64,000 nt of DNA from an uncultured Brevinematales bacterium (GCA_964413265.1 CAYPRX010000073.1:88883-152882); one strand, 5' to 3'. Shown: positions 3,107-60,779, counted from the stretch's first letter. The notes: generated by a model from the letters alone, not told the origin. A program made the numbers and translations.

Positions 3107-5062
3107 ATGTTTATCTCTCAAAGGATGAAGAAGATCGACCTTATTATCATGAAAAAATTTGCTGATGATGTGTCGAAAGAAATAGTAAAGTTCGGAAATT
3201 TTCAAACGATTGAAATATCCGGCGAAAAGGCAGAAGATCTTTTGCTGAAGAAAAGCGTTTCTGATGCGGAAATAGCGAGATTTTCAGACCTTGATAAGAG
3301 GGTAAGTTACCTTATTTCCACGTTTGAAAGCATCATGGAAAATATTGAAATGTGGGAAAGCGAGGAGATTACTGAAGCCGGAATGATAGATGCTGAGAGC
3401 CTTGAAAAGAATGTCAAGACCATAGAATCGGAAGTAAACTTGCATTACGGAAATATTGAAAGGCTCAGAAATGAGCAGAGAGAAAATAAAATCAGAATAA
3501 AAAAGGTAGATTATTTCTCTACCCAGGAAGTCGATTGGACAAGAAGTACCTGGATGACATTTTTTACTATGGGATTTGGCAGCGTTCCACTGGCTGGTTA
3601 TGTAGGATTTGAAAGTGCTATGGAAACACTGCCGACCGTCATTGAAAAAGTAGATACGATTGATGATACGGTAATAGTGTTTTACGTGGCACCTTCTTCG
3701 GTTAAAGAAAAGGTCTCACAGATTCTTAAAAGCGTTTATTTCAAGAATTATGGTATACCTGAAACAGCAGCAGAAGTGGATAAATCCTCACTTGTGCATC
3801 ATGCTTTCGAGTTAAGTTCAGCTTATGATGAGGAAATGTGGCAGGAAAAGCAATTTAAAAAAAAGATACTTGATTACAGACAGCTTTTGAAAACTCTGAA
3901 AAACAGTGCACGGTATTATATAGCCATGGAACGCCTGAAGGGGGAGATGGCATCTTCGGAAAAGGTTTGCATATTTTCAGGATGGGTTCCATCAAAAATT
4001 ACTCATAGATTTAAAAAAAAGATGGAACAATTGACTCAGAACAGGTGTGAAATTTTGGAAAGGAGCGCATCAAAAGCGTTGGCTGAAGAGGGTCTCATTG
4101 CGCCAACTAAATTATCCAACCCGTTCTTTATAAGACCATTTGAAATGCTTGTTTCTACTTTCGGCACTCCTAATTACAGGGAAATCGATCCAACCCCATT
4201 GCTTGCTGTGACTTTTGTACTTATGTACGGTGCAATGTTCGGGGATGTAGGACAGGGTTTAGCCCTCGTCCTGCTGGGTATTATTATATTTTTTATTAAA
4301 AAGTTCAAATCATTCAGGAATTTCGGTACTATATTTATTTATGTCGGAGTATCATCTGCCTTTTTTGGATTGATGTACGGAGCCGTATTTGGTTTTGAGA
4401 ATGTGATAAAAGCGATATGGATGAAGCCGATGGACCGTGTTATGGATATCCTCACACTCTCTATTATATATGGATCATTTGTTATCCTGTTAGCTCAAAT
4501 CCTCAATATTATTAATAGTATATTGGGGAAGGACTATCCCAGTTTTTTATTTTCAAGGAATGGGCTGGCCGGCTTCGGTTTCTATGGATCTTTAGTCTAT
4601 GTAGCTATCTGTTTAATAAGGGGAATTCATTACCAGGAATATATTTTTGTTTTCACCATAGTTTGTGCTCTGTTGATATCCCTCGAAAAATACCTTGAAA
4701 GATTATTGTTCAGCCATCATGTTAGCGGAGCTGAGGACGAAAAACCAACCGTTACGATGGCTGTTGTAGAAATATACGAATCTGTAATGGGTTTCCTCAG
4801 CAATACCATATCTTTCATCAGGGTCGGTGCTTTCGCCTTGAACCACATAGCACTCATGAGCGTAGTTTTTGTTTTGTCATATTCGTCCAAAAATCCTATA
4901 GTTCAATGGGTAGGACTCTTCATCGGCAATATCATCGTGATCGGCTTTGAGGGATTTATAGTTGGCATCCAGGTAATGAGGCTTGAATACTATGAATTCT
5001 TTACCAGGTTTTTCAGAGCTGACGGCAAGGCCTTCGAAGGGATCGGTGTTTATAAACCATAA
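3107..5062 (+). CDS. atpI: V-type ATP synthase subunit I (a subunit, membrane stator)
   Basis: It is 651 aa with a soluble coiled N-terminal half followed by multiple TM helices. Motifs: NPFFIRPFEMLVSTFGTPNYREIDPTPLLAVTFVLMYGAMFGDVGQG and the Arg-containing helix SFIRVGAFALNHIAL. Confidence 0.85.
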   Translation: MFISQRMKKIDLIIMKKFADDVSKEIVKFGNFQTIEISGEKAEDLLLKKSVSDAEIARFSDLDKRVSYLISTFESIMENIEMWESEEITEAGMIDAESLEKNVKTIESEVNLHYGNIERLRNEQRENKIRIKKVDYFSTQEVDWTRSTWMTFFTMGFGSVPLAGYVGFESAMETLPTVIEKVDTIDDTVIVFYVAPSSVKEKVSQILKSVYFKNYGIPETAAEVDKSSLVHHAFELSSAYDEEMWQEKQFKKKILDYRQLLKTLKNSARYYIAMERLKGEMASSEKVCIFSGWVPSKITHRFKKKMEQLTQNRCEILERSASKALAEEGLIAPTKLSNPFFIRPFEMLVSTFGTPNYREIDPTPLLAVTFVLMYGAMFGDVGQGLALVLLGIIIFFIKKFKSFRNFGTIFIYVGVSSAFFGLMYGAVFGFENVIKAIWMKPMDRVMDILTLSIIYGSFVILLAQILNIINSILGKDYPSFLFSRNGLAGFGFYGSLVYVAICLIRGIHYQEYIFVFTIVCALLISLEKYLERLLFSHHVSGAEDEKPTVTMAVVEIYESVMGFLSNTISFIRVGAFALNHIALMSVVFVLSYSSKNPIVQWVGLFIGNIIVIGFEGFIVGIQVMRLEYYEFFTRFFRADGKAFEGIGVYKP

Positions 5063-5115
5063 AATCTTAACTATTATTATTTTCTTTAAGAGAAAACATT
5101 GGCGAGGACAGGAAG

Positions 5116-6447
5116 ATGCCTTTCTATGATAAATATTACCAGAAGATGCCGGATAATACCCTCAAGCAGGTCAATCCGTATAATGGTACAGAAGTCTGGT
5201 GTGTTGAAGAGAGGAAAAGAGGACCCGTCCTGAATGGTGTTCCTGAAAACCCTGTTCCGATATCACCTGTAATACCTGAGAATTACTGTGATTTCTGCTG
5301 TTCCAGATATGAATTCTGCACTCCAGAAAAAGCAAGGATAATTAAGGAACATGACGGGGTTTGGAGGAAATATTACAGGGTTGATCCTGAAAATGTAGGC
5401 GAATGTTCAGCCGATTTCAGGCTTGTTGGCAACCTTTTTGAGATCGTAACTTACGAGTACTGGTCCAAGAATTATCATTACAAAATGAATAAAGCTAACA
5501 GGGATTGGAAGGATAAATATTTAAACAGCCAGAAAGGTTATAATCATGCTATGAAAATGCTTGAACTGAAATTAAAAAGAATCGGGCTGGATATTAATTC
5601 AATTTCAGAAGATGAAAAGATTGAAAAATTAAACCCATTTTTCGGTGGTTCTCATAATCTCATAATAGGAAGGCGTCATTACCGGGATGGTGCTAAGTTT
5701 TCCCATGAACTTTGTTCCTCTGGTGAATTGACTTCTGAAGAGCATTTCCAGTATATCCTGCTTACAGTCGAAAGTCTGAAGGATATATTCGAGCAAAACA
5801 ATTTTATAAGGTATATTATCGTTTTCCAGAACTGGCTGAAGCCAGCAGGTGCTTCTTTTGACCATCTGCACAAACAGCTCGTAGGTCTGGATGAGTGGGG
5901 GGTTCAGATGGAAAGGGAAATGGCAGAACTTGTCAGAAATCCTAATCTTTACAACGAATTTTCAATAAATTTCGGTATCTATCATTCGATGTTAATAGCA
6001 GAGAATGATTATGCGATAGCTGTATCAGAGTTCGGCCACCAGTTCCCTACAGTTGCAGTATATTCAAAGAGTGAAATCGTCAGGCCCTTTGATCAAACTG
6101 GCGAACAGATCAGGGGGATGAGCGACCTTGTCCATGCAATTCATTCAGTCATTTCAAGCCAGACGACATGCAATGAGGAATGGTATTATTCACCATTCGA
6201 TTCTGTTTACAGCATGCCCTGGCGCATATGCATTAAATTGCGTATTTATACTCCTGCAGGCTTTGAAGGAAACACTCAGATCTATATTAACCCGGTGCAT
6301 CCCCAGAAATTAGCTGGAGAAATATCAAGAATGCTTGAAAAAAAACGTGATGAGGGTCTGATCTGTCCGGATATCAGGATTGGGAGGGAAGTGAAAAGGG
6401 AGCCAAATGTATTGAAATATTATAAGAATAAATTAAAGAGACTTTAG
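5116..6447 (+). CDS. GalT-family (HIT superfamily branch III) nucleotidyltransferase/phosphorylase-like protein
   Basis: The N-terminal NPYNGTEVWCVEERKRGP resembles the GalT N-terminus. It has a Cys cluster CDFCCSRYEFC (Zn-site-like) and an HxHxQ active-site-like motif (FDHLHKQLVG). Confidence 0.6.
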   Translation: MPFYDKYYQKMPDNTLKQVNPYNGTEVWCVEERKRGPVLNGVPENPVPISPVIPENYCDFCCSRYEFCTPEKARIIKEHDGVWRKYYRVDPENVGECSADFRLVGNLFEIVTYEYWSKNYHYKMNKANRDWKDKYLNSQKGYNHAMKMLELKLKRIGLDINSISEDEKIEKLNPFFGGSHNLIIGRRHYRDGAKFSHELCSSGELTSEEHFQYILLTVESLKDIFEQNNFIRYIIVFQNWLKPAGASFDHLHKQLVGLDEWGVQMEREMAELVRNPNLYNEFSINFGIYHSMLIAENDYAIAVSEFGHQFPTVAVYSKSEIVRPFDQTGEQIRGMSDLVHAIHSVISSQTTCNEEWYYSPFDSVYSMPWRICIKLRIYTPAGFEGNTQIYINPVHPQKLAGEISRMLEKKRDEGLICPDIRIGREVKREPNVLKYYKNKLKRL

Positions 6448-8611: not shown

Positions 8612-10366
8612 ATGTCTTTAAAGATAGAAGATCTTCAGGCTGTTCTTGATATCAACAGAAAGATCAACTCGATAGAAGATGTCCGCCTCATTCTCAATGA
8701 TATATCACACTACGCTGGAGTTCTGCTGAACGCTGAAGGGGCATCCATACTGCTTGTCGATCCTGATACAGGTAATCTCTTTTTTGAAGTAGCTTTCGGT
8801 GAAAACGCTGATATCCTCAGTAATGTCATTGTTCCAAAGGGAAAAGGTATCGCCGGATATGCGGCTCAAAGAAAGGAACATGTAATTGTCTACGATGCGG
8901 AAAATGATTACAGATTCTATAAAGAGGTGGATCAGAAGACAAACCTTAAAACAAAAAATCTGCTGGCTATGCCGCTAATACATAATGATAATTCCATAGG
9001 CGTTATAGAAGTTATAAATCCGGCCAGAAAAATTTTTACCGACGATGATGTTATTATTTTAAAGCAGTTTGCAGAACAGGCCGCCACCGCCATAGCTAAC
9101 GCACTTCTTTATAAGGCCGCGCAGACCAGGGCGAAGGAACTTGAATACCTCTACCAGATTTCGAATCTAACGAATCTCACATATGACAGGAAAGTCCTTT
9201 TTTCAAAAATAGTTGAGTTGCTGTCTAAAATATTTAATTCACACAGGGTTTCAATAATGTTCCTCAATGAGAAAACCGGTCATTTATATATTGAAAGCGC
9301 TGTAGGGATGCCTCAGGATGTTGTTGAAAAGATGGAGCACAGCCTGGAGATTGATAAAATTTCGAGTAGAGCAATAAAACAGGGTAAGACGATTTATTCA
9401 AATAATATTGAGAAAACAGGGTTTGGCAGGAATAAACGTTTAAGGTACAAAAATACAAGTTTCATCTGCACTCCTATCAAGATTAAAAATATTTGTTTGG
9501 GAGTTATTAACATTTCAGAGCCCAAAAAAGGGGCGCGGTATACTCCTGAAATGATCAAAACGCTAAGGACCATCGCAAACCAGGTTGGTTATACATATGA
9601 AAGCATGCTTAGTTATATGGAACAGCTTGAACATGAAAAGATAAAAAAAGAGATCGACATCATGAAGACGCTTCAGAATGCCCTCCTGATTAGCGATTTT
9701 ATCTCTTTTAAAAACATATCCGTGTTTGCTAAAATGCAGACTGCAGAGGTCGTCGGGGGAGATTTTTATGATATCTACAATCTGACACCTGCCAGAATTG
9801 GTTTTGTAATCGGCGATGTTTCGGGAAAGGGCCTGCCAGCATCTTTGTATATGGCCGTATCAAGAAGCGTAGTAAAAGCTTATGCTTTTCATACAAAAGA
9901 ACCAGATATGCTTCTGGAATATGCAAATGACATACTCTTCGAAGATTCAAGGGTAGGCATGTTCGTTACGATGTTTTACGGGAGTTTAGATCTGACAAGA
10001 AAGATTCTGGAATTTTCGAATGCTGGACATAATCTTCAGTATGTTTACAGGCCGGCAATGGGGATATTCTCCTCTCTTTCAAGCAAGGGAATCCCCCTTG
10101 GCATCACCAAGTCTGAAAATTATATATCTTCGTACTTCCAGCTTGAAGAGGGAGATATTATTTTCTGTTTTACAGACGGGATAATCGATGCCGTGAATGA
10201 TAAGGGGATAGATTTCGGGCTGGACAGACTAAAAAAGATTATAAGGGAAAATTCTTCTTTGAACGCTTCTGCAATAGTAAATATCATTTTCAGAGAGATT
10301 GATTTATGGTCAAAGGGTGCTCCGCAATGGGATGATATGACCATGCTTGTATTAAAAATAACTTAA
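8612..10366 (+). CDS. GAF-GAF-PP2C (SpoIIE/RsbU-type) serine phosphatase
   Basis: Two GAF-like segments are visible (GASILLVDPDTGNLFFEVAFG ... SIGVIEVINP; HRVSIMFLNEKTGHLYIESAVG ... CLGVINISEP). The C-terminal SpoIIE domain shows VGGDFYD, IGDVSGKGLPASLYM, FTDGIIDA and DDMTMLVLK. A GGAGG ribosome-binding site lies 6 nt before the ATG at 8612. Confidence 0.8.
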   Translation: MSLKIEDLQAVLDINRKINSIEDVRLILNDISHYAGVLLNAEGASILLVDPDTGNLFFEVAFGENADILSNVIVPKGKGIAGYAAQRKEHVIVYDAENDYRFYKEVDQKTNLKTKNLLAMPLIHNDNSIGVIEVINPARKIFTDDDVIILKQFAEQAATAIANALLYKAAQTRAKELEYLYQISNLTNLTYDRKVLFSKIVELLSKIFNSHRVSIMFLNEKTGHLYIESAVGMPQDVVEKMEHSLEIDKISSRAIKQGKTIYSNNIEKTGFGRNKRLRYKNTSFICTPIKIKNICLGVINISEPKKGARYTPEMIKTLRTIANQVGYTYESMLSYMEQLEHEKIKKEIDIMKTLQNALLISDFISFKNISVFAKMQTAEVVGGDFYDIYNLTPARIGFVIGDVSGKGLPASLYMAVSRSVVKAYAFHTKEPDMLLEYANDILFEDSRVGMFVTMFYGSLDLTRKILEFSNAGHNLQYVYRPAMGIFSSLSSKGIPLGITKSENYISSYFQLEEGDIIFCFTDGIIDAVNDKGIDFGLDRLKKIIRENSSLNASAIVNIIFREIDLWSKGAPQWDDMTMLVLKIT

Positions 10367-11110
10367 ATGCATGATATTCTGACCTATCCTGATTATTTCA
10401 GCAATGTTTTGACTGTCGGTACAACCGAAAGGGGTTTGAACTTCGGCCTGTATACTGCCAAAACATTACTGGAAGCCGAGAAAATTAAAATATTGATGGC
10501 TTCCATTGTCAAAGGACTTGGTTTTAGAGGACTTGTAACCTTAAAACAAATACATTCGGGTCTTGTCCATTTTATTGGTAACATCAATTACAAAGAATAT
10601 CTGAATAATTCTTTTATTGAAGGTGATGGTATTTTTACGGATTCAAAAGAGCTGCTTCTTGGTATACTCACAGCGGACTGCATTCCAGTTTTTTATACCA
10701 ATGATTCGGCCGATATAGCAGGCATTGTACATGCCGGATGGAAGGGTATTAAAAATAAGATCCACATAAATATTATAGATAGAATCAGAGAAAAACTGAA
10801 TATAAAACCTGAAAGTCTCCATATTCTTATAGGGCCGCATATAAGGAACTGCTGTTATGAAGTAAAGAAGGATTTGATAGAAGAACTTGGTACTATTAAT
10901 TTTGAAACAAGAAAAAGTTCTCTTTTTTTGGATCTTGAGGCTTGCCTTACTGAGGACTTGATTAAAAAAGGAGTAAAATCGGAAAATATTATAAAATACT
11001 TAAAATGCACCAAGTGCTCTGAATTACCGCATTTCTATTCATACCGCGGCGGAGATATGAGGGAAAGAATGCTCTCATTTATCGGCATCGGCAGACAGGC
11101 TATATTTTAA
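10367..11110 (+). CDS. pgeF: YfiH/PgeF family (DUF152) purine nucleoside phosphorylase / peptidoglycan editing factor
   Basis: Motifs LKQIHSGLVHFI, LTADCIPVFY, HAGWKG, CCYEV and YSYRG. It starts 1 nt after the upstream stop. Confidence 0.8.
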   Translation: MHDILTYPDYFSNVLTVGTTERGLNFGLYTAKTLLEAEKIKILMASIVKGLGFRGLVTLKQIHSGLVHFIGNINYKEYLNNSFIEGDGIFTDSKELLLGILTADCIPVFYTNDSADIAGIVHAGWKGIKNKIHINIIDRIREKLNIKPESLHILIGPHIRNCCYEVKKDLIEELGTINFETRKSSLFLDLEACLTEDLIKKGVKSENIIKYLKCTKCSELPHFYSYRGGDMRERMLSFIGIGRQAIF

Positions 11111-20245: not shown

Positions 20246-20275
20246 TTGACATATTGATACTATATGGTGTATAAT
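20246..20275 (+). promoter_or_regulatory. Candidate sigma-70 promoter of the TetR-efflux operon
   Basis: TTGACA (20246-20251), an 18-nt spacer, then TATAAT (20270-20275). It lies about 55 nt upstream of the TetR start. Confidence 0.5.
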
Positions 20276-20331: not shown

Positions 20332-20940
20332 ATGAATAAGAGGCATGATTCGGGTGATACGAAGGAGAATATACTCATTGCCGCCAGGGATATACTTATC
20401 AGGAAGGGTTATGACGGAACTAAAATGGAGGATATCGCCAAAAAAGCCGGCGTCAGCAAGATCATGCTGTATTACCATTTTAAAAGTAAGGAAAATATAC
20501 TGAAGGAGCTTATCGGCAGAATGATAGATGCCACCAGAAAGAATATTTCAGGGTATCTGGAAGGCATGAAAAATCAGAAAACAATAAAGCCGGAAATGAT
20601 CCTTGAAAAATTAAAAAAGGTGATAGGAAAAGAAACTCCTCTTATACGTATAATTATTTCGGAAGTGCTGAGGGGAAAACTGGATTACTGGATAGCATTA
20701 TCTCTTTTAAGGGATTTGTATGATGACCTTTACAATATGCGAAGAAAAGCGGGGATTTCTCTTGAGGACAGGGAATCATGTATTACAAAATTGTTCTTTT
20801 TCCAGGGTCTGCCTCTGATTATGTATTTCTGTACATCTGAATATTTTGGGAAGGTTTACGGAATCGAGGCTGAAAAAATGGAAACAGCATTTTCAGAAAA
20901 ATTTGCTGACAGCCTTTTAAGAACACTTGATCTTAATTGA
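20332..20940 (+). CDS. TetR/AcrR family transcriptional regulator
   Basis: The N-terminal HTH signature is KENILIAARDILIRKGYDGTKMEDIAKKAGVSKIMLYYHFKSKENIL. Confidence 0.85.
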   Translation: MNKRHDSGDTKENILIAARDILIRKGYDGTKMEDIAKKAGVSKIMLYYHFKSKENILKELIGRMIDATRKNISGYLEGMKNQKTIKPEMILEKLKKVIGKETPLIRIIISEVLRGKLDYWIALSLLRDLYDDLYNMRRKAGISLEDRESCITKLFFFQGLPLIMYFCTSEYFGKVYGIEAEKMETAFSEKFADSLLRTLDLN

Positions 20941-55043: not shown

Positions 55044-56501
55044 TTAATCTTTAGAGAAGTATTGTATATTATTGAGAAATTCCTCATTTTTCAGTGTTTT
55101 TTTCATAGCAGTAGTCAATTTTGGTATGATCTCCTCGTTCGGCATTGACGCAAAAACCTTCCTGATCATCCTGATCTTTTCAAGATCGTCATTAGGAAGG
55201 AGCAGTTCTTCACGGCGTGTTCCTGAGAGTTTTATGTCAATTGCCGGGAATATTCTTATGTTGGACAGGTTCCTGTCCAGATGGATTTCCATATTACCGG
55301 TCCCTTTGAATTCCTCATAAATGACTTCATCCATCTTGCTTCCGGTATCGACAAGAGCTGTGGCAACTATGGTCAGACTGCCGCCTTCTTCTATGTTTCT
55401 GGCGGCTCCGAAAAACTTTTTAGGTTTATGAAGCGCATTTGAATCAATTCCTCCCGACAAGACTTTTCCGCTGGCCGGTTCAACCTGGTTGTAAGCCCTG
55501 GCCAGTCTTGTTATGGAATCGAGAAGTATGACCACGTCATAACCGCTTTCAACGAGACGTTTGGCTTTCTCGAGAACCATCTGGGCGACAAGGACATGCT
55601 TTGAGGCAGGTTCATCGAAAGTCGAGCTTAAAACCTCAGCCTGTACAGATCTCTGCATGTCTGTGACCTCTTCCGGCCTTTCATCAACAAGGAATATTAT
55701 AAGGCGGACTTCCGGATGGTTTGATGTAATGCTGTTCGCAATCTTCTTTAATAAAACAGTTTTTCCTGCCTTCGGCGGTGAAACTACGAGGCCCCTCTGT
55801 CCCTTGCCTATGGGTGTAAAAAGATCCATAATTCTCATCGCTATCTCGTCTGATTCAACTTCCAGTTTGATCTTCCGTTCCGGAAATAAGGGCGTCAGGT
55901 TATCGAAGATTGTCCTTCTTCTTGCCTCTTCAGGTGATTTATCATTGATTTTTTCAATCCGAAGCAGAGCAAAAAACTTTTCCTCCTCGGTCCTTTTCGG
56001 AGGGCGGATATGGCCCTCGACTGTATCGCCTGTTCTCAACTTAAAAAGGGATATTTGTGATGGTGAAACATATATATCGTCGGAACTCGGTAAAAAATTG
56101 TACCTCTGTGAGCGAAGGAACCCGAATCCTCCCTCAATAACCTGCAGGATTCCGCCTCCGTAGATGATACCTTCATTGTCGGCATGTTTCCGGAGAATCT
56201 GATAAACCATTTCCTGAGTATGCATTGATTCGTAATTTTCTATTTTAAGCTGTTCGGCAATGAGGGTTAGTTCAGTTATTGAAAGCTGCTTCAGTTTATT
56301 TATATAAATACGCTTATCATCAGTAAATATCTGCTTCATAACTTCCTCGGGATCATTAGTATGGATATATGAGCTGAATACATTGTTTTTATTTTCTTCA
56401 ATATCCATAACGTTTTTCTCGGAAGATTCAGTTGATTTTTCATCTGATTCAATCAATCCATTCATATCATTGCCGTTCTTCAGCCTGATCCTCTTTGGCA
56501 T
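55044..56501 (-). CDS. rho: Transcription termination factor Rho, with an N-terminal extension of about 64 aa
   Basis: [32 protein letters not shown] and [13 protein letters not shown]. The core begins around [16 protein letters not shown]. Confidence 0.95.
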
Positions 56502-56643: not shown

Positions 56644-58692
56644 TTAATCCATCGACACTTTCGTGTTTTTACTTAGAACCACATTTCTATTGTTTTTTTT
56701 AATGTAATCAAAGACAAAATAGGGAGGATAACCATCGATTTTGGTACAAAGACCAAGCCACTGAACCTTACCTATCTTCGGAATCATTTTAATATTAATT
56801 ATTATATTAGTATTTTTTGAAATGTCAATCTTTTGATAAATTTTATCACCTATATTTTCTATTGTAATTGTTTTACCCTCAAGAAAAGCCAGGGAAGAAG
56901 GATCGATCTGTACCTCGACAGGTACATTAAGTGTTCCTGATATATCGGTTTGAATCTCGTTCGTAATTACATCTATTTGGAATGGAATTTCGTTGTTTAA
57001 CCGGCGGTTATAGCTTACGCTGGAAAAGGCTGAAATAAGCCATTCCAGACTGGAATAATTACCGGTTCTGCCCCAGAAAGCCCGCGAAATATCATGTATA
57101 AAAACCCCCTTCGAGAAATACTGCGAATAATGCGATGCCCAATCCAGCCTGTAAGAATATTCTTCCACAGGATTATTATTATGGCAGGATTTCAAGAGAG
57201 CATAATCGATCTGATTTCCCGGAATATAATTTAATTTCTCATTCGAAAGATATTCCGCCCAGCTTTTTTTCATAGCCTCGAACATATCCGGAGATGCCTC
57301 ATAAAGCATAATAAAATCAGCAAATGCACCTGCATCCTGGAAAAAGAAAGGGTCCTGTCCATGCTCCCTGCCATGGTCCCAGCCGAGTGTAAACACCCAC
57401 ACAGGCTTTGTTATGCCGGCAGCTTTTCTTACCCTGAACAGAAATTCCGCAGTTTTATGTGCAATCCAGAGATTCCACTGTTCCTTTATTACTGCATTTC
57501 TGTTGCCCTGCAGTTTTTGACCCAGCCATAAAGTCTTTTCAGCTAAAGTATAACTATTCCATCTGGAGGGGGTTTCAATATTCATATCACGAGTAAATTC
57601 ATCTGCGTTCTCATAGCCGCTCAATTCGCCAAAGCGTATAAAATCGAACCCTATAAAATCGACATAGTCGATGCTGTTAAGATATTTTGCCAGGGCGACA
57701 ATGTCATCAAATCTTTTTTGATCGCTGAAAGATATAAATTTTCCACTGACTGCTTCAGTATTATTATAATCATTCCTGATGCTCAAAGCAGGATTGTAAC
57801 CGGCTTTTAACCAGCCATTTTTAGGCGTATAAAAGCACATAATATAAGCGCCCACCAATTTATTGCAAGCACTTATTTCTTTTCCTACCGTTTCCAGGTT
57901 TTTCAGCGGATAATATTCCCATGGCCTGTCCCTATTTATGGTGCCCCACCCTGTCGTTTCACCGGCGAGAATGAAGAAAGCGTCAATATTTCCATAGTTC
58001 ATCCAGTCTGCAACACCGCTTATAAAATTGGTTTTTTGAAGATGACTGTTATAAATACTTCTTTTAACCACTGGCTGGTTATATTCAAGGTTTAACAGGC
58101 TTATTGTTTTTTTAAATTCGGGCGGGGTCCTGGCTATGATTTCAAACTGCCTGGACATCACAGGGTAATCCTGGCAATATAAAACTGCCTCATATGTTCC
58201 AATTTCAGGTTTCCAGGCAGCAATCCAGCTTGACAGGTTACCATACCTGGTTTCTGAAAAAGAAAGTTTCAGTGGGCCCAGAAAGCATTTAATAGGTGTT
58301 TTATCTTTATAGACAATAACATAGAATTTGGAGGAATCTATCTCACCTGAGAGTATAAAACGGGCAACTTCAAAACGGTAATATGATTTTTTGTATGAAT
58401 AGAAAACTATCCGTGCGGAAGAGTTCGATGATATCATCACATTAAGACTATTAGTTTCATCGCTCTGAATATCCTTGTCCTGATAGAATTCAGGGCCCCA
58501 ATCTATATATTCTTCGCAGCGCTGTTCAACCTTTTTAACCGGGCTAGTATCTCCGGATTGGGCATTTAGCTTAGTTCTGATTGAATTATTAACCATGTAA
58601 TTAACATTAATATCGATAAATATGAAAATTACGAAGATCACGGTAAGTATGCCGAAATTAATGATAAGTGCAATGACATATTTACGTATCAT
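56644..58692 (-). CDS. Membrane-anchored protein with beta-sandwich and putative glycoside-hydrolase-like (GHL/DUF4015-like) TIM-barrel domain
   Basis: It has a single N-terminal TM helix. The central region DYVDFIGFDFIRFGE resembles the GFDEIQFDYVRFP block of GHL-type hydrolase-like domains. This is pattern recognition only. The start overlaps the ATPase stop (ATGA). Confidence 0.4.
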   Translation of the reverse strand: MIRKYVIALIINFGILTVIFVIFIFIDINVNYMVNNSIRTKLNAQSGDTSPVKKVEQRCEEYIDWGPEFYQDKDIQSDETNSLNVMISSNSSARIVFYSYKKSYYRFEVARFILSGEIDSSKFYVIVYKDKTPIKCFLGPLKLSFSETRYGNLSSWIAAWKPEIGTYEAVLYCQDYPVMSRQFEIIARTPPEFKKTISLLNLEYNQPVVKRSIYNSHLQKTNFISGVADWMNYGNIDAFFILAGETTGWGTINRDRPWEYYPLKNLETVGKEISACNKLVGAYIMCFYTPKNGWLKAGYNPALSIRNDYNNTEAVSGKFISFSDQKRFDDIVALAKYLNSIDYVDFIGFDFIRFGELSGYENADEFTRDMNIETPSRWNSYTLAEKTLWLGQKLQGNRNAVIKEQWNLWIAHKTAEFLFRVRKAAGITKPVWVFTLGWDHGREHGQDPFFFQDAGAFADFIMLYEASPDMFEAMKKSWAEYLSNEKLNYIPGNQIDYALLKSCHNNNPVEEYSYRLDWASHYSQYFSKGVFIHDISRAFWGRTGNYSSLEWLISAFSSVSYNRRLNNEIPFQIDVITNEIQTDISGTLNVPVEVQIDPSSLAFLEGKTITIENIGDKIYQKIDISKNTNIIINIKMIPKIGKVQWLGLCTKIDGYPPYFVFDYIKKNNRNVVLSKNTKVSMD

Positions 58693-59372
58693 GAATTTGC
58701 CTTGAAACTGTCAATTTTTCCCTCGACTAAAAAATATGTTTCTTTGCAGTACCTTCCGAATCTTTCATCATGAGTGGCAATCACTATAGTAAGGCCCAGC
58801 TTATTAAGATTACTGAATATATTGAAAACTTCCAGAGCTGATGCCTCATCCAGATTTGCAGTTGGTTCATCTGCCACGAGAATTTCAGGATTATTGATAA
58901 GAGAACGTGCTATGGAAACCTTCTTTTTCTCTCCTCCAGACAGTTCAAAGGGAAATCTTTTTTTCAGTCCATCAATAATCAGGCTTTCCATAAGACTGTT
59001 ATAATATTTATATTTCTTTCCTACGGGGGAACCGTTTATTACAAGCGGTAGAAGAACGTTATCCTCAACTGAAAGATCATTCATAAACTGATTATCCTGA
59101 AATATTATACCGAATTTTGTTCTTCTTATATATGCTATATCTTTTTGCGAAGTAGCCGAAAGGCGGTATTTCCCCCAGAAAATTTCCCCTGAAGTCGGTT
59201 TAATGTTTGAAGTAATAATATTAAGGAGTGTGCTTTTTCCGCTACCTGATGGTCCCACAAAAGAGAGATAATTGCCGTAATTAATATCGATATTTATCAT
59301 ATCCAGGCTTTTTATAAATTTACTGCCTACTGATTTGAATTTCTTTGATATATGCATCAATTTAATATCCAT
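58689..59372 (-). CDS. ABC transporter ATP-binding protein, FtsE/LolD/MacB-type
   Basis: Walker A GPSGSGKST, Q-loop FQDNQ, signature LSGGEKKK, Walker B ILVADEPTANLD and H-loop ATHD. Confidence 0.85.
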   Translation of the reverse strand: MDIKLMHISKKFKSVGSKFIKSLDMINIDINYGNYLSFVGPSGSGKSTLLNIITSNIKPTSGEIFWGKYRLSATSQKDIAYIRRTKFGIIFQDNQFMNDLSVEDNVLLPLVINGSPVGKKYKYYNSLMESLIIDGLKKRFPFELSGGEKKKVSIARSLINNPEILVADEPTANLDEASALEVFNIFSNLNKLGLTIVIATHDERFGRYCKETYFLVEGKIDSFKANS

Positions 59373-59387
59373 AGACCCTCATGCTGA

Positions 59388-59861
59388 TCATTCTTTTCTG
59401 ATCTGTCTATCCAGATTGATCAGGACAATCAAAGATGCAGCCGGAATGAATAAGATCACAACAAGCGCCTGGTATAATATAAACATAATGGAAATCATAT
59501 TGATTCTGATAAAGAAAAATAGTAAAAGGAAGAAAACGACAGAAAACGTGAAAACAATGAAAATTTCAATTATATTATCGAAAATTATGAAAATAAATGA
59601 CGCTCCAAGCTGCCTGAGCAGAATATAGGAATCAGTATGAGAATTGATCCTTGAATAAATAAAAAGCATGTTTGAAAGTGTTACAATGATAAAAATATAA
59701 AACAGGATATTTTGAGGTACTGTCATGACTGTAATTATGAACAGCATAAAATTTATAACAAAAAAAATTATCCTCCAGAAACTTAATAGCCTGTAACGTC
59801 TGATATTTAACCAAATTATGTTTTCAAGAAAGGTCGAAACATTCCGTATAAAATTCATCAT
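59388..59861 (-). CDS. Minimal FtsX-like ABC permease (4 TM, no extracellular domain)
   Basis: Four predicted TM helices are present. The motif LLRQLGAS after TM2 resembles the FtsX-family LkalGas block. TM1 and TM2 are joined by only a few residues. The likely start overlaps the upstream stop (TAATG). The track start at 59888 is an alternative. Confidence 0.4.
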   Translation of the reverse strand: MMNFIRNVSTFLENIIWLNIRRYRLLSFWRIIFFVINFMLFIITVMTVPQNILFYIFIIVTLSNMLFIYSRINSHTDSYILLRQLGASFIFIIFDNIIEIFIVFTFSVVFFLLLFFFIRINMISIMFILYQALVVILFIPAASLIVLINLDRQIRKE

Positions 59862-60721
59862 TATTCCCATAACCTGTTTCCATAACAATTTTTTATCTGC
59901 GCAAGAATTTCTACTTTTCGGGAGGGATCAGGATTTTTAATTAACATGAACTTCGCATAGCGGTCATAGAATTTAACCTGTGATAAAGCTTCCTTATATT
60001 CATCATTAATATCTTCACCGACAATTATAAGGGAAGCGTTAGTTTCAACATATGATTTCAACAGGTTCTTCGATGCGTTAACTGTGTAAAGATCGGTTTC
60101 GGGGTCAAAATCAGGGCTTAATATTATTCCCAGCCTTTTGCTGTCTATTATAAGTGATACGAGCTCGGTGAATTTCATGAAATTATGAGAATAATTCGGG
60201 TCTGCCGCATTTAAAATAAAAAAAACTATAATGCCGCATTCATCAAATCTGTAACTGATCATGGAATTTCTGTTCATATTCATCTTGATTTCATTCCACC
60301 TTTTATAGTTCAATTTTTCGCCGAATTTAAGAATGACCTCGTGAGGCTGACCGACGGTTTTCTTGTAAAATTCACAAATTGATATAATACTTCTTTTCCT
60401 TCTGCTTGAAGCATTTGCCGATTCGAGACTGTCTATGTACCTGTCAAATTCTATTAAACTTTTTCTCCCCGAAGGAGCTCTGTATATAACGGGATAATTT
60501 GAAACAAGCTTAGCATAAAGTTTTTCATTGTACTGCACGTCTATATTTAAAATATTCGCTCTTTCCAGATATTCATACTGGGAAGGGTCGAAAGGGGTAT
60601 CCTTGGGAATTGTAACTGATCCGGTGTTGTTACTTATCTGAATGTCGGTAAGGTACAGTATTTCGACCGATGAATCATACTTATCAGCGATCATAAGAGC
60701 TTCTTTTATATTAATCCTCAT
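59861..60721 (-). CDS. Hypothetical protein (286 aa), first gene of the FtsEX-like operon
   Basis: There is no signal peptide or TM helix and I recognise no motif. A GAGGAG ribosome-binding site and a consensus promoter lie upstream. Confidence 0.4.
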   Translation of the reverse strand: MRINIKEALMIADKYDSSVEILYLTDIQISNNTGSVTIPKDTPFDPSQYEYLERANILNIDVQYNEKLYAKLVSNYPVIYRAPSGRKSLIEFDRYIDSLESANASSRRKRSIISICEFYKKTVGQPHEVILKFGEKLNYKRWNEIKMNMNRNSMISYRFDECGIIVFFILNAADPNYSHNFMKFTELVSLIIDSKRLGIILSPDFDPETDLYTVNASKNLLKSYVETNASLIIVGEDINDEYKEALSQVKFYDRYAKFMLIKNPDPSRKVEILAQIKNCYGNRLWE

Positions 60722-60751
60722 CGGCTCCTCTTCAGATATTTCAAACCAATA

Positions 60752-60779
60752 ATTATATTATAATTCTTATCTTTGTCAA
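60752..60779 (-). promoter_or_regulatory. Consensus sigma-70 promoter of the 60721-56644 operon
   Basis: On the minus strand: TTGACA (60779-60774), a 16-nt spacer, then TATAAT (60757-60752). It lies about 30 nt upstream of the ATG at 60721. Confidence 0.5.

Follow-up and report, generated by a model that had tools for sequence, protein, structure and literature searches.

Genes and signals at the locus

Four tightly packed minus-strand open reading frames (ORFs), here called A, B, C, and D, fill positions 56644-60721 of the 64,000-nucleotide (nt) stretch of DNA analyzed in this work, hereafter the window (uncultured Brevinematales bacterium, GCA_964413265.1 CAYPRX010000073.1:88883-152882; positions are counted from its first letter). 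An earlier note, made from the sequence alone, proposed that the four genes encode a self-contained, ATP-gated module for remodeling envelope glycans. Do they form a single machine? On balance, we lean toward viewing the cluster as a juxtaposition of two separable units, an ATP-binding cassette (ABC) module encoded by A-B-C and the protein D. The genes and their signals are as follows.

A: 59861..60721, minus strand; 286-amino-acid (aa) ORF, the first gene of the A-B-C trio
B: 59388..59870, minus strand; 160 aa from its most likely start; the whole ORF spans 59388..59888, and an alternative ATG at 59861 would give 157 aa
C: 58689..59372, minus strand; 227-aa predicted ABC ATPase
D: 56644..58692, minus strand; 682-aa protein, putatively membrane-anchored and glycoside-hydrolase-like
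Sigma-70-type promoter of the A-B-C(-D) unit: 60752..60779, minus strand; TTGACA at 60779-60774, 16 nt, TATAAT at 60757-60752
Ribosome-binding site GAGGAG: 60725..60730, minus strand; 3 nt before the ATG of A at 60721

Direct reading of the sequence confirms the packing described in the earlier note, with a 15-nt spacer carrying GAGGG between B and C and an ATGA overlap between C and D. The TAATG reported at the A/B junction is also present, but it probably does not mark the start of B. Homologs of B are 160 aa long and begin with MG, and the in-frame ATG at 59870 gives a 160-aa product that opens MGIMMNF; the start of B is therefore most likely 59870, with a 10-nt overlap with A, rather than 59861.

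The promoter and the GAGGAG site proposed earlier both stand, and the promoter is conserved in relatives of the locus, the closest of which are uncultured Brevinematales (Spirochaetota) metagenome-assembled genomes. It matches the consensus at 12 of 12 positions. Perfect TTGACA-N16-18-TATAAT sites number three in the window, against 0.05 expected, and two of the three are at this locus. A 12/12 promoter also lies approximately 55-58 nt upstream of the A homolog in eight other loci (L010, L011, L015, L021, L097, L100, L104, and L091), nine counting the window, and the last four of these lack D. Being perfect, rare in the window, and retained in eight other loci, the promoter of A is more than a chance match. 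Purine-rich sites equivalent to GAGGAG precede the A homologs of related loci as well.

B, a minimal FtsX-domain protein

The earlier note took B for an FtsX-like permease with four transmembrane (TM) helices, and the family of B bears this out. An exhaustive profile search gathered 23 representatives, all of 123-165 aa, and reached no long FtsX proteins. The B of the window has no match in Pfam, and the family profile retrieved nothing significant from PDB sequences. The deciding evidence comes from Pfam matches through family members: 12 of 26 match FtsX (PF02687), one of them, P0084, above the gathering cutoff (26.9 versus 25.5 bits), with its residues 52-150, spanning TM2-TM4, aligned to positions 4-112 of the 120 in the profile. 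The B-family profile recovers P0084 with an E-value of 1e-7 and P0085, another of the FtsX-matching members, with 1e-4; P0085 is encoded directly after an A gene, with the start of a C-like ORF following at the contig end. Searched directly against Escherichia coli FtsX, MacB, and LolC, the B profile aligned the right segments with weak scores; the TM2-TM3 regions correspond to those of FtsX and MacB at 5.7 and -0.3 bits.

Conservation within the family centers on an N-terminal amphipathic helix (NILWLN.KR), a coupling segment (LLRS.GAS), and a Glu 13 residues after the Gly of GAS, the same spacing as in E. coli MacB. Hydropathy and alignment place TM1 at about 31-51, TM2 at 55-71, TM3 at 92-115, and TM4 at 123-147; the N and C termini, both basic, are predicted to be cytoplasmic. 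Hydropathy is contiguous across TM1 and TM2 (24-72), whereas the corresponding segments of E. coli FtsX lie at 69-96 and 214-250. The loop between the two helices has approximately 5 residues in the B of the window and never exceeds approximately 20 across the 26 members, compared to approximately 117 in E. coli FtsX and approximately 210 in LolC. B keeps the amphipathic helix, TM1, the TM2-TM3 coupling segment, and TM3-TM4, and its extracytoplasmic domain (ECD) has shrunk to a turn. By these sequence comparisons, we assign B as a genuine minimal four-TM FtsX-domain protein without an ECD. Our search of the literature for ECD-less FtsX proteins yielded nothing informative.

The ATPase C and the cytoplasmic protein A

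Profile matches and motifs assign C to the MacB/LolD/FtsE/BceA clade of ABC ATPases, as the earlier note had it, with its catalytic motifs intact in translation: Walker A (GPSGSGKST), LSGGE, Walker B (ILVADEPT), and the H-loop (ATHD). C matches Pfam ABC_tran at 2.9e-31. Among NCBIfam models it matches FtsE (4e-51) and LolD (1e-48) best, in neither case reaching the equivalog cutoff (173.7 bits versus 264.85 for FtsE, TIGR02673; 165.4 bits for LolD); the third-best is a bacteriocin-export ABC. The nearest solved chains are 5xu1 (MacB-like, pneumococcal), PsdA, MJ0796, LolD, BceA, and FtsE.

A has no TM segment or signal peptide and is predicted to be cytoplasmic. The description of A as soluble and without recognizable motifs holds: it matches no Pfam or NCBIfam family, no enzymatic motif was detected in it, and its family profile found nothing significant among PDB sequences. 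Homologs of A form 16 clusters. An AlphaFold2 model (pLDDT, the predicted local distance difference test, of 92.6) retrieved nothing significant with Foldseek from PDB or BFVD (best E-value 1e-3, template-modeling scores of about 0.15-0.26). PilT/GspE-type ATPases, TOPRIM/resolvase-like folds, and Rossmann-like lobes were considered and set aside as weak, low-scoring matches, and no fold was assigned. WbqC (PF08889) gave weak collinear matches in 8 of 16 members (best E-value 0.002), in which A residues 94-192 align to profile positions 59-205; the best score, 15.6 bits, is below the gathering score of 21.3. We treat this likeness as a lead only; WbqC is itself an uncharacterized family, and a literature search on it returned nothing informative. 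A PADLOC match to DrmC (E-value 4e-5), present in 1 of the 16 family members, was rejected as spurious, and no defense system was assigned. Separately, a lone A paralog, 50% identical and with no B or C beside it, is encoded in L089 (8001-8858, plus strand), from the same metagenome sample as a full-trio locus.

D, a glycoside-hydrolase-like protein

The AlphaFold2 model of D (pLDDT 90; predicted template-modeling score 0.85) consists, in order, of a long N-terminal TM helix, a beta-sandwich, a (beta/alpha)8 barrel with eight strands, and a C-terminal beta-sandwich. Foldseek matches in PDB are dominated by glycoside hydrolases (GH), namely GH13 GlgE, GH66 dextranase/CITase, GH36, GH31, GH5, and GH35, at E-values of 1e-10 to 1e-7, template-modeling scores of 0.3-0.36, and identities of 8-11%. 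The single N-terminal TM helix, the beta-sandwich, and the hydrolase-like TIM barrel anticipated in the earlier note are all found in this model. Its suggestion of a DUF4015/GHL relationship failed, leaving a fold-level likeness: 0 of 41 family members match DUF4015, any GHL, or any glycoside-hydrolase Pfam model at E<=10. The string GFDFIRF is reminiscent of a DUF4015 motif. D and its family profile likewise have no match in Pfam, NCBIfam, or PDB sequences.

Across an alignment covering several phyla, E203, D350, D496, and D534 of D are conserved in 47 of 47 sequences and E465 in 42 of 47, and these carboxylates lie at or just past the C-terminal ends of barrel strands. Because barrel-top carboxylates are conserved, a glycosidase-like active site is plausible in the modeled fold, with D350 (beta4) and either E465 (beta6) or D496 (beta7) as the candidate catalytic pair. 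D shares with GH66 dextranase/CITase, GH36, GH31, and GH13 the sandwich-barrel-sandwich order, an invariant Asp at the end of beta4, and acids after beta6 and beta7; it differs from them in its N-terminal membrane anchor and in its distance, with low identities and template-modeling scores and no CAZy-linked Pfam or PDB sequence match. D is best read, from the model, as a single-pass, periplasm-facing glycoside-hydrolase-like protein, and its relatives as a broad TIM-barrel glycosidase-like family without Pfam annotation.

Distribution of the trio and of D

Are the four genes inherited together? A profile scan of GTDB species genomes identified 304 confirmed relatives of D in Spirochaetota, Elusimicrobiota, Goldiibacteriota, Gemmatimonadota, and other phyla, and neighborhoods were examined in the best 79. 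Only seven of these 79 have A-B-C adjacent to D, all of them Brevinematales whose D is 47-70% identical to that of the window; the other 72 are without A-B-C. Five further Brevinematales among the 79 have D followed by rho without A-B-C, and the remaining loci have D with neither A-B-C nor rho, except for the contig-end-limited Brevinematales locus L023. Outside these Brevinematales, the neighbors of D are mostly housekeeping genes (dtd, tgt, trmL, and sppA).

The trio was followed with a metagenome scan based on A, which yielded 18 loci. Wherever a locus was long enough to judge, A, B, and C were direct neighbors with little space between them, and D after A-B-C was found only in the closest relatives. 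About half of the A-B-C loci have no D in the 1.7-8 kb covered downstream of C. In at least eight loci, the trio sits in unrelated surroundings: C is followed by convergent or unrelated genes (GNAT, a metallo-beta-lactamase-fold protein, or GH5), and the genes before A vary (Rrf2, OmpA, or a class IV aminotransferase). On this sampling, the A-B-C family appears confined to Brevinematales. The co-occurrence of all four families, whose absence the earlier note would take as a refutation, is largely missing, and A-B-C alone is constant. Since A-B-C recurs without D under its own promoter and D mostly occurs without A-B-C, we regard the two as separable units.

How did the arrangement in the window arise? 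The order A-B-C-MscS-D-rho occurs in two deep-branching lineages, L005/L012 and L111, and L111 is basal in a neighbor-joining tree of D; L097 has A-B-C-MscS-rho and no D. Insertion of A-B-C upstream of an older D-rho pair was considered and dropped, as L111 and the D tree suggest that A-B-C-MscS-D-rho is ancestral. We infer a history in which a same-strand A-B-C-MscS-D-rho block would have come first, MscS would then have been lost in the clade of the window, creating the contact between C and D, and the trio would have parted from D in the sister group. The direct C/D contact through ATGA is likely a derived rather than a defining feature.

Several Brevinematales carry a gene for an MscS-type mechanosensitive channel at this block, either separating the trio from D or immediately preceding D or rho, and its presence may suggest a connection of the block with osmotic or envelope stress. 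The MscS genes are located as follows.

L005/L012: about 4945-5976
L111: 4146-5234
L097: 5701-6834
L002: 4914-5987

A second observation concerns the surroundings of D in other organisms. Directly downstream of the D homolog and on the same strand, there is often a gene of approximately 150 aa, seen in two phyla and absent from the window. It follows D in Spirochaetota loci (L024, L025, L028, L029, L034, L039, L041, L048, and L065) and in a set mostly from Elusimicrobiota (L053, L054, L056, L058, L059, L061, L070, and L087). The Spirochaetota representative has a lipoprotein-type signal and the Elusimicrobiota one a hydrophobic secretion-type N-terminus, and the two groups are weakly related. 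The product of this gene may be the usual partner of D.

An ABC module without an outward domain

The work of type VII ABC systems takes place outside the membrane and relies on a large extracytoplasmic domain between TM1 and TM2 and on a protein bound to that domain (PMC12646458; PMC11466899), and a large extracellular domain is part of the classical type VII fold (PMC11466899). The best reading of A-B-C is an ECD-less variant of this type with the cytoplasmic partner A, that is, a type VII ABC system without the defining outward domain plus a cytoplasmic orphan. The earlier note did not recognize the four-gene combination as a described system; for the trio, our search of the literature found no account. 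Its closest mechanical relatives are MacB and LolCDE, with which it shares the ATPase clade, the FtsX-domain GAS motif with Glu at +13 as in MacB, and four TM helices with both termini inside. It differs from them in that B, at only 160 aa, lacks the periplasmic domain of approximately 200 residues and has no adaptor, TolC, or LolA partner.

How might such a module work? B and C would form a minimal type VII B2C2 complex, in which B dimerizes and its TM2-TM3 coupling segments dock a pair of C subunits. ATP binding would close C and zip TM1 and TM2 together, as in MacB. With no ECD, the output could reach no farther than the bilayer or the cytoplasmic face, where A might bind C or the invariant N-terminal helix of B as an accessory or effector subunit; A is proposed as a dedicated subunit because the operon invariably opens with it and its translation is coupled to that of the next gene. 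The complex would most likely extract or reposition a membrane-embedded, lipid-like ligand, or signal through an intramembrane contact, and would be unlikely to drive a periplasmic protein. D would hydrolyze or remodel periplasmic glycan independently. A cytoplasmic-side accessory has a precedent in MlaB of MlaFEDB, and BceAB-BceS is likewise an ABC complex with a membrane partner, BceS; in sequence and fold, A has no detectable likeness to the STAS domain or to histidine kinases.

Several observations weigh against separating the ABC module from D. About half of the trio loci keep D (approximately 10 distinct loci with D within 3 kb, about 8-10 without), and A-B-C-(MscS)-D-rho appears to be the ancestral order for this Brevinematales clade. 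C and D overlap by ATGA in both the window and L011, and no strong promoter was found in the 79-117-nt gaps between C and D in relatives; co-expression of C and D is therefore likely, and in the lineage of the window the two are probably co-transcribed. In L101, a locus without D, a gene for a GH5 cellulase-family lipoprotein (10041-11075, plus strand) lies 15 nt after C, which hints at a recurrent link between the ABC module and glycosidases. The TM helix of D could contact B within the membrane. Co-occurrence was judged on the sequence of each locus, and the roles given to A and to B2C2 are proposed ones.

The alternative that fares best is an adapted form of the model in the earlier note. 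In the lineage of the window, A-B-C and D would be one machine, in which ATP hydrolysis by C moves the helices of B and an intramembrane contact relays this to the single TM helix of D, switching D on or off, and the MscS-containing and dispersed arrangements would represent operon decay with the partnership kept. The shared strand, the single upstream consensus promoter, the C/D overlap, the promoterless gaps, the probably ancestral order, and the GH5 lipoprotein of L101 are all consistent with it, and there are precedents for a hydrolase partner in YbbAP-TesA (PMC12646458) and for an intramembrane partner in BceAB-BceS. YbbAP-TesA combines an E. coli type VII ABC with a periplasmic esterase; YbbP has 10 TM helices, and its periplasmic domains hold TesA (PMC12646458). 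B, however, is limited to four TM helices and lacks a periplasmic domain, and D is glycosidase-like, anchored, and mostly found without the ABC module. One machine is also hard to reconcile with the 72 of 79 D loci, in several phyla, that lack A-B-C, with the at least eight trio contexts that lack D and carry their own promoter, and with MscS intervening in two deep lineages. Moreover, the TM region of D, with its conserved I-N-x motif, is alike in ABC-linked and unlinked clades. We consider a single machine unlikely, and a functional partnership between the ABC module and D has, in our judgment, a similarly low chance of being real.

The comparison with FtsEX and its partners EnvC, PcsB, RipC, and CwlO is instructive here. 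The likeness is real in three respects: an FtsE-like ATPase, a four-TM FtsX-domain subunit, and a candidate envelope hydrolase nearby. The differences are that B lacks the Porter/ECD between TM1 and TM2, that C scores below the FtsE equivalog cutoff, and that the trio has an obligatory cytoplasmic subunit in A. D, too, departs from the pattern; it is a TM-anchored, TIM-barrel, glycosidase-like protein rather than a peptidoglycan amidase or endopeptidase or an activator of the known kinds, and neither a Pfam scan nor the model shows in it the coiled-coil, LytM, CHAP, or NlpC domains of FtsEX partners. Because B is without the domain on which FtsEX-type activation depends, and because D mostly occurs without the ABC module and the trio is found without D, the self-contained, ATP-gated module is unsupported in the form first proposed. 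A related idea, that the trio is an ECD-less mechanotransducer whose ATP-driven helix movement is coupled "sideways or inwards" to A, as a protein of novel fold, and by contacts within the membrane to single-pass or lipid-anchored glycosidases (D here, GH5 elsewhere), strikes us as doubtful and a little less credible than the single machine.

Alternatively, A-B-C could be a small membrane-extraction or efflux/immunity pump that expels a hydrophobic compound, similar to HrtBA, YbbAP, or a lantibiotic/bacteriocin ABC cut down to its membrane core, with A as a regulator or substrate-processing enzyme and D irrelevant. PsdA, BceA, and a MacB-like efflux ATPase are among the closest relatives of C, which also matches the bacteriocin-export model noted above, and the variable genomic contexts of the trio and its strong, constitutive-looking promoter would fit such a role. 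Yet no bacteriocin, two-component system, or adaptor gene lies nearby in any locus examined, the characterized extractors just named, as far as the literature consulted describes them, keep an extracytoplasmic domain or a periplasmic pocket, and A has no detectable enzymatic motif; a pump is thus an improbable explanation, on a par with the mechanotransducer. That the trio is the divergent cell-division FtsEX of this lineage, with A replacing the periplasmic activator and linking to the cytoplasmic divisome, is very improbable: FtsE is the top NCBIfam model and a top PDB match of C, and B carries an FtsX domain, but C falls well short of the FtsE cutoff with LolD and MacB models scoring nearly equally, the ECD by which FtsX function is defined is missing from B, no division genes lie beside the trio in any locus examined, and the family is confined to one order.

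Why would a juxtaposition of an ABC module and an independent hydrolase-like protein matter? Mechanical work in the periplasm, done by large extracytoplasmic domains, is what defines type VII ABC systems. A conserved family consisting of the four-helix core, an ATPase, and an obligatory cytoplasmic partner would show what that core does alone, and the trio would offer a small, tractable model for MacB-fold mechanics. D, for its part, defines a multi-phylum glycosidase-like family without Pfam or CAZy-type annotation. The trio is narrowly distributed and its architecture is one that specialists would find unusual; a broad consequence would follow only if a function were found.

A promoter inside D and the linkage to rho

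Upstream of the cluster lies nfi (endonuclease V); downstream are rho, rpmE, and xseA. An Rfam search of the window found no RNA families. Two features tie the end of D to rho.

Second TTGACA-16-TATAAT: 56801..56828, minus strand; inside the 3' end of D, probably the rho promoter
rho: 55044..56501, minus strand; identified from its translation

The embedded promoter also matches the consensus at 12/12 positions; the stop codon of D follows 184 nt after it, and the rho ATG at 56501 about 300 nt after it. In all nine genomes of the window clade, across which D is 47-70% identical, this location carries identical hexamers with fixed synonymous positions, and six sister genomes carry TTGACA-18-TAA(C/T)AT there. 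The hexamers encode K-[IFL]-D-I...T-N-[IV], the sole conserved patch in the variable C-terminal sandwich of D. D and rho are adjacent, where the sequence extends far enough, in every Brevinematales locus whose D is at least 42% identical to that of the window, and no other gene in this order is linked to D so constantly. The embedded site probably serves as the rho promoter, and the constancy of the D-rho adjacency is probably due to its position in the 3' end of D. As a promoter conserved within a coding sequence, it would exemplify regulatory DNA that constrains protein sequence and freezes gene order.

The rho gene of the metagenome-assembled genome represented by L005 (8312-9775) and L012 (12300-13772) is broken into three successive ORFs, maybe by frameshifts or assembly errors. 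The third perfect consensus promoter of the window is located at 20246-20275 on the plus strand, upstream of an ORF at 20332..20940.

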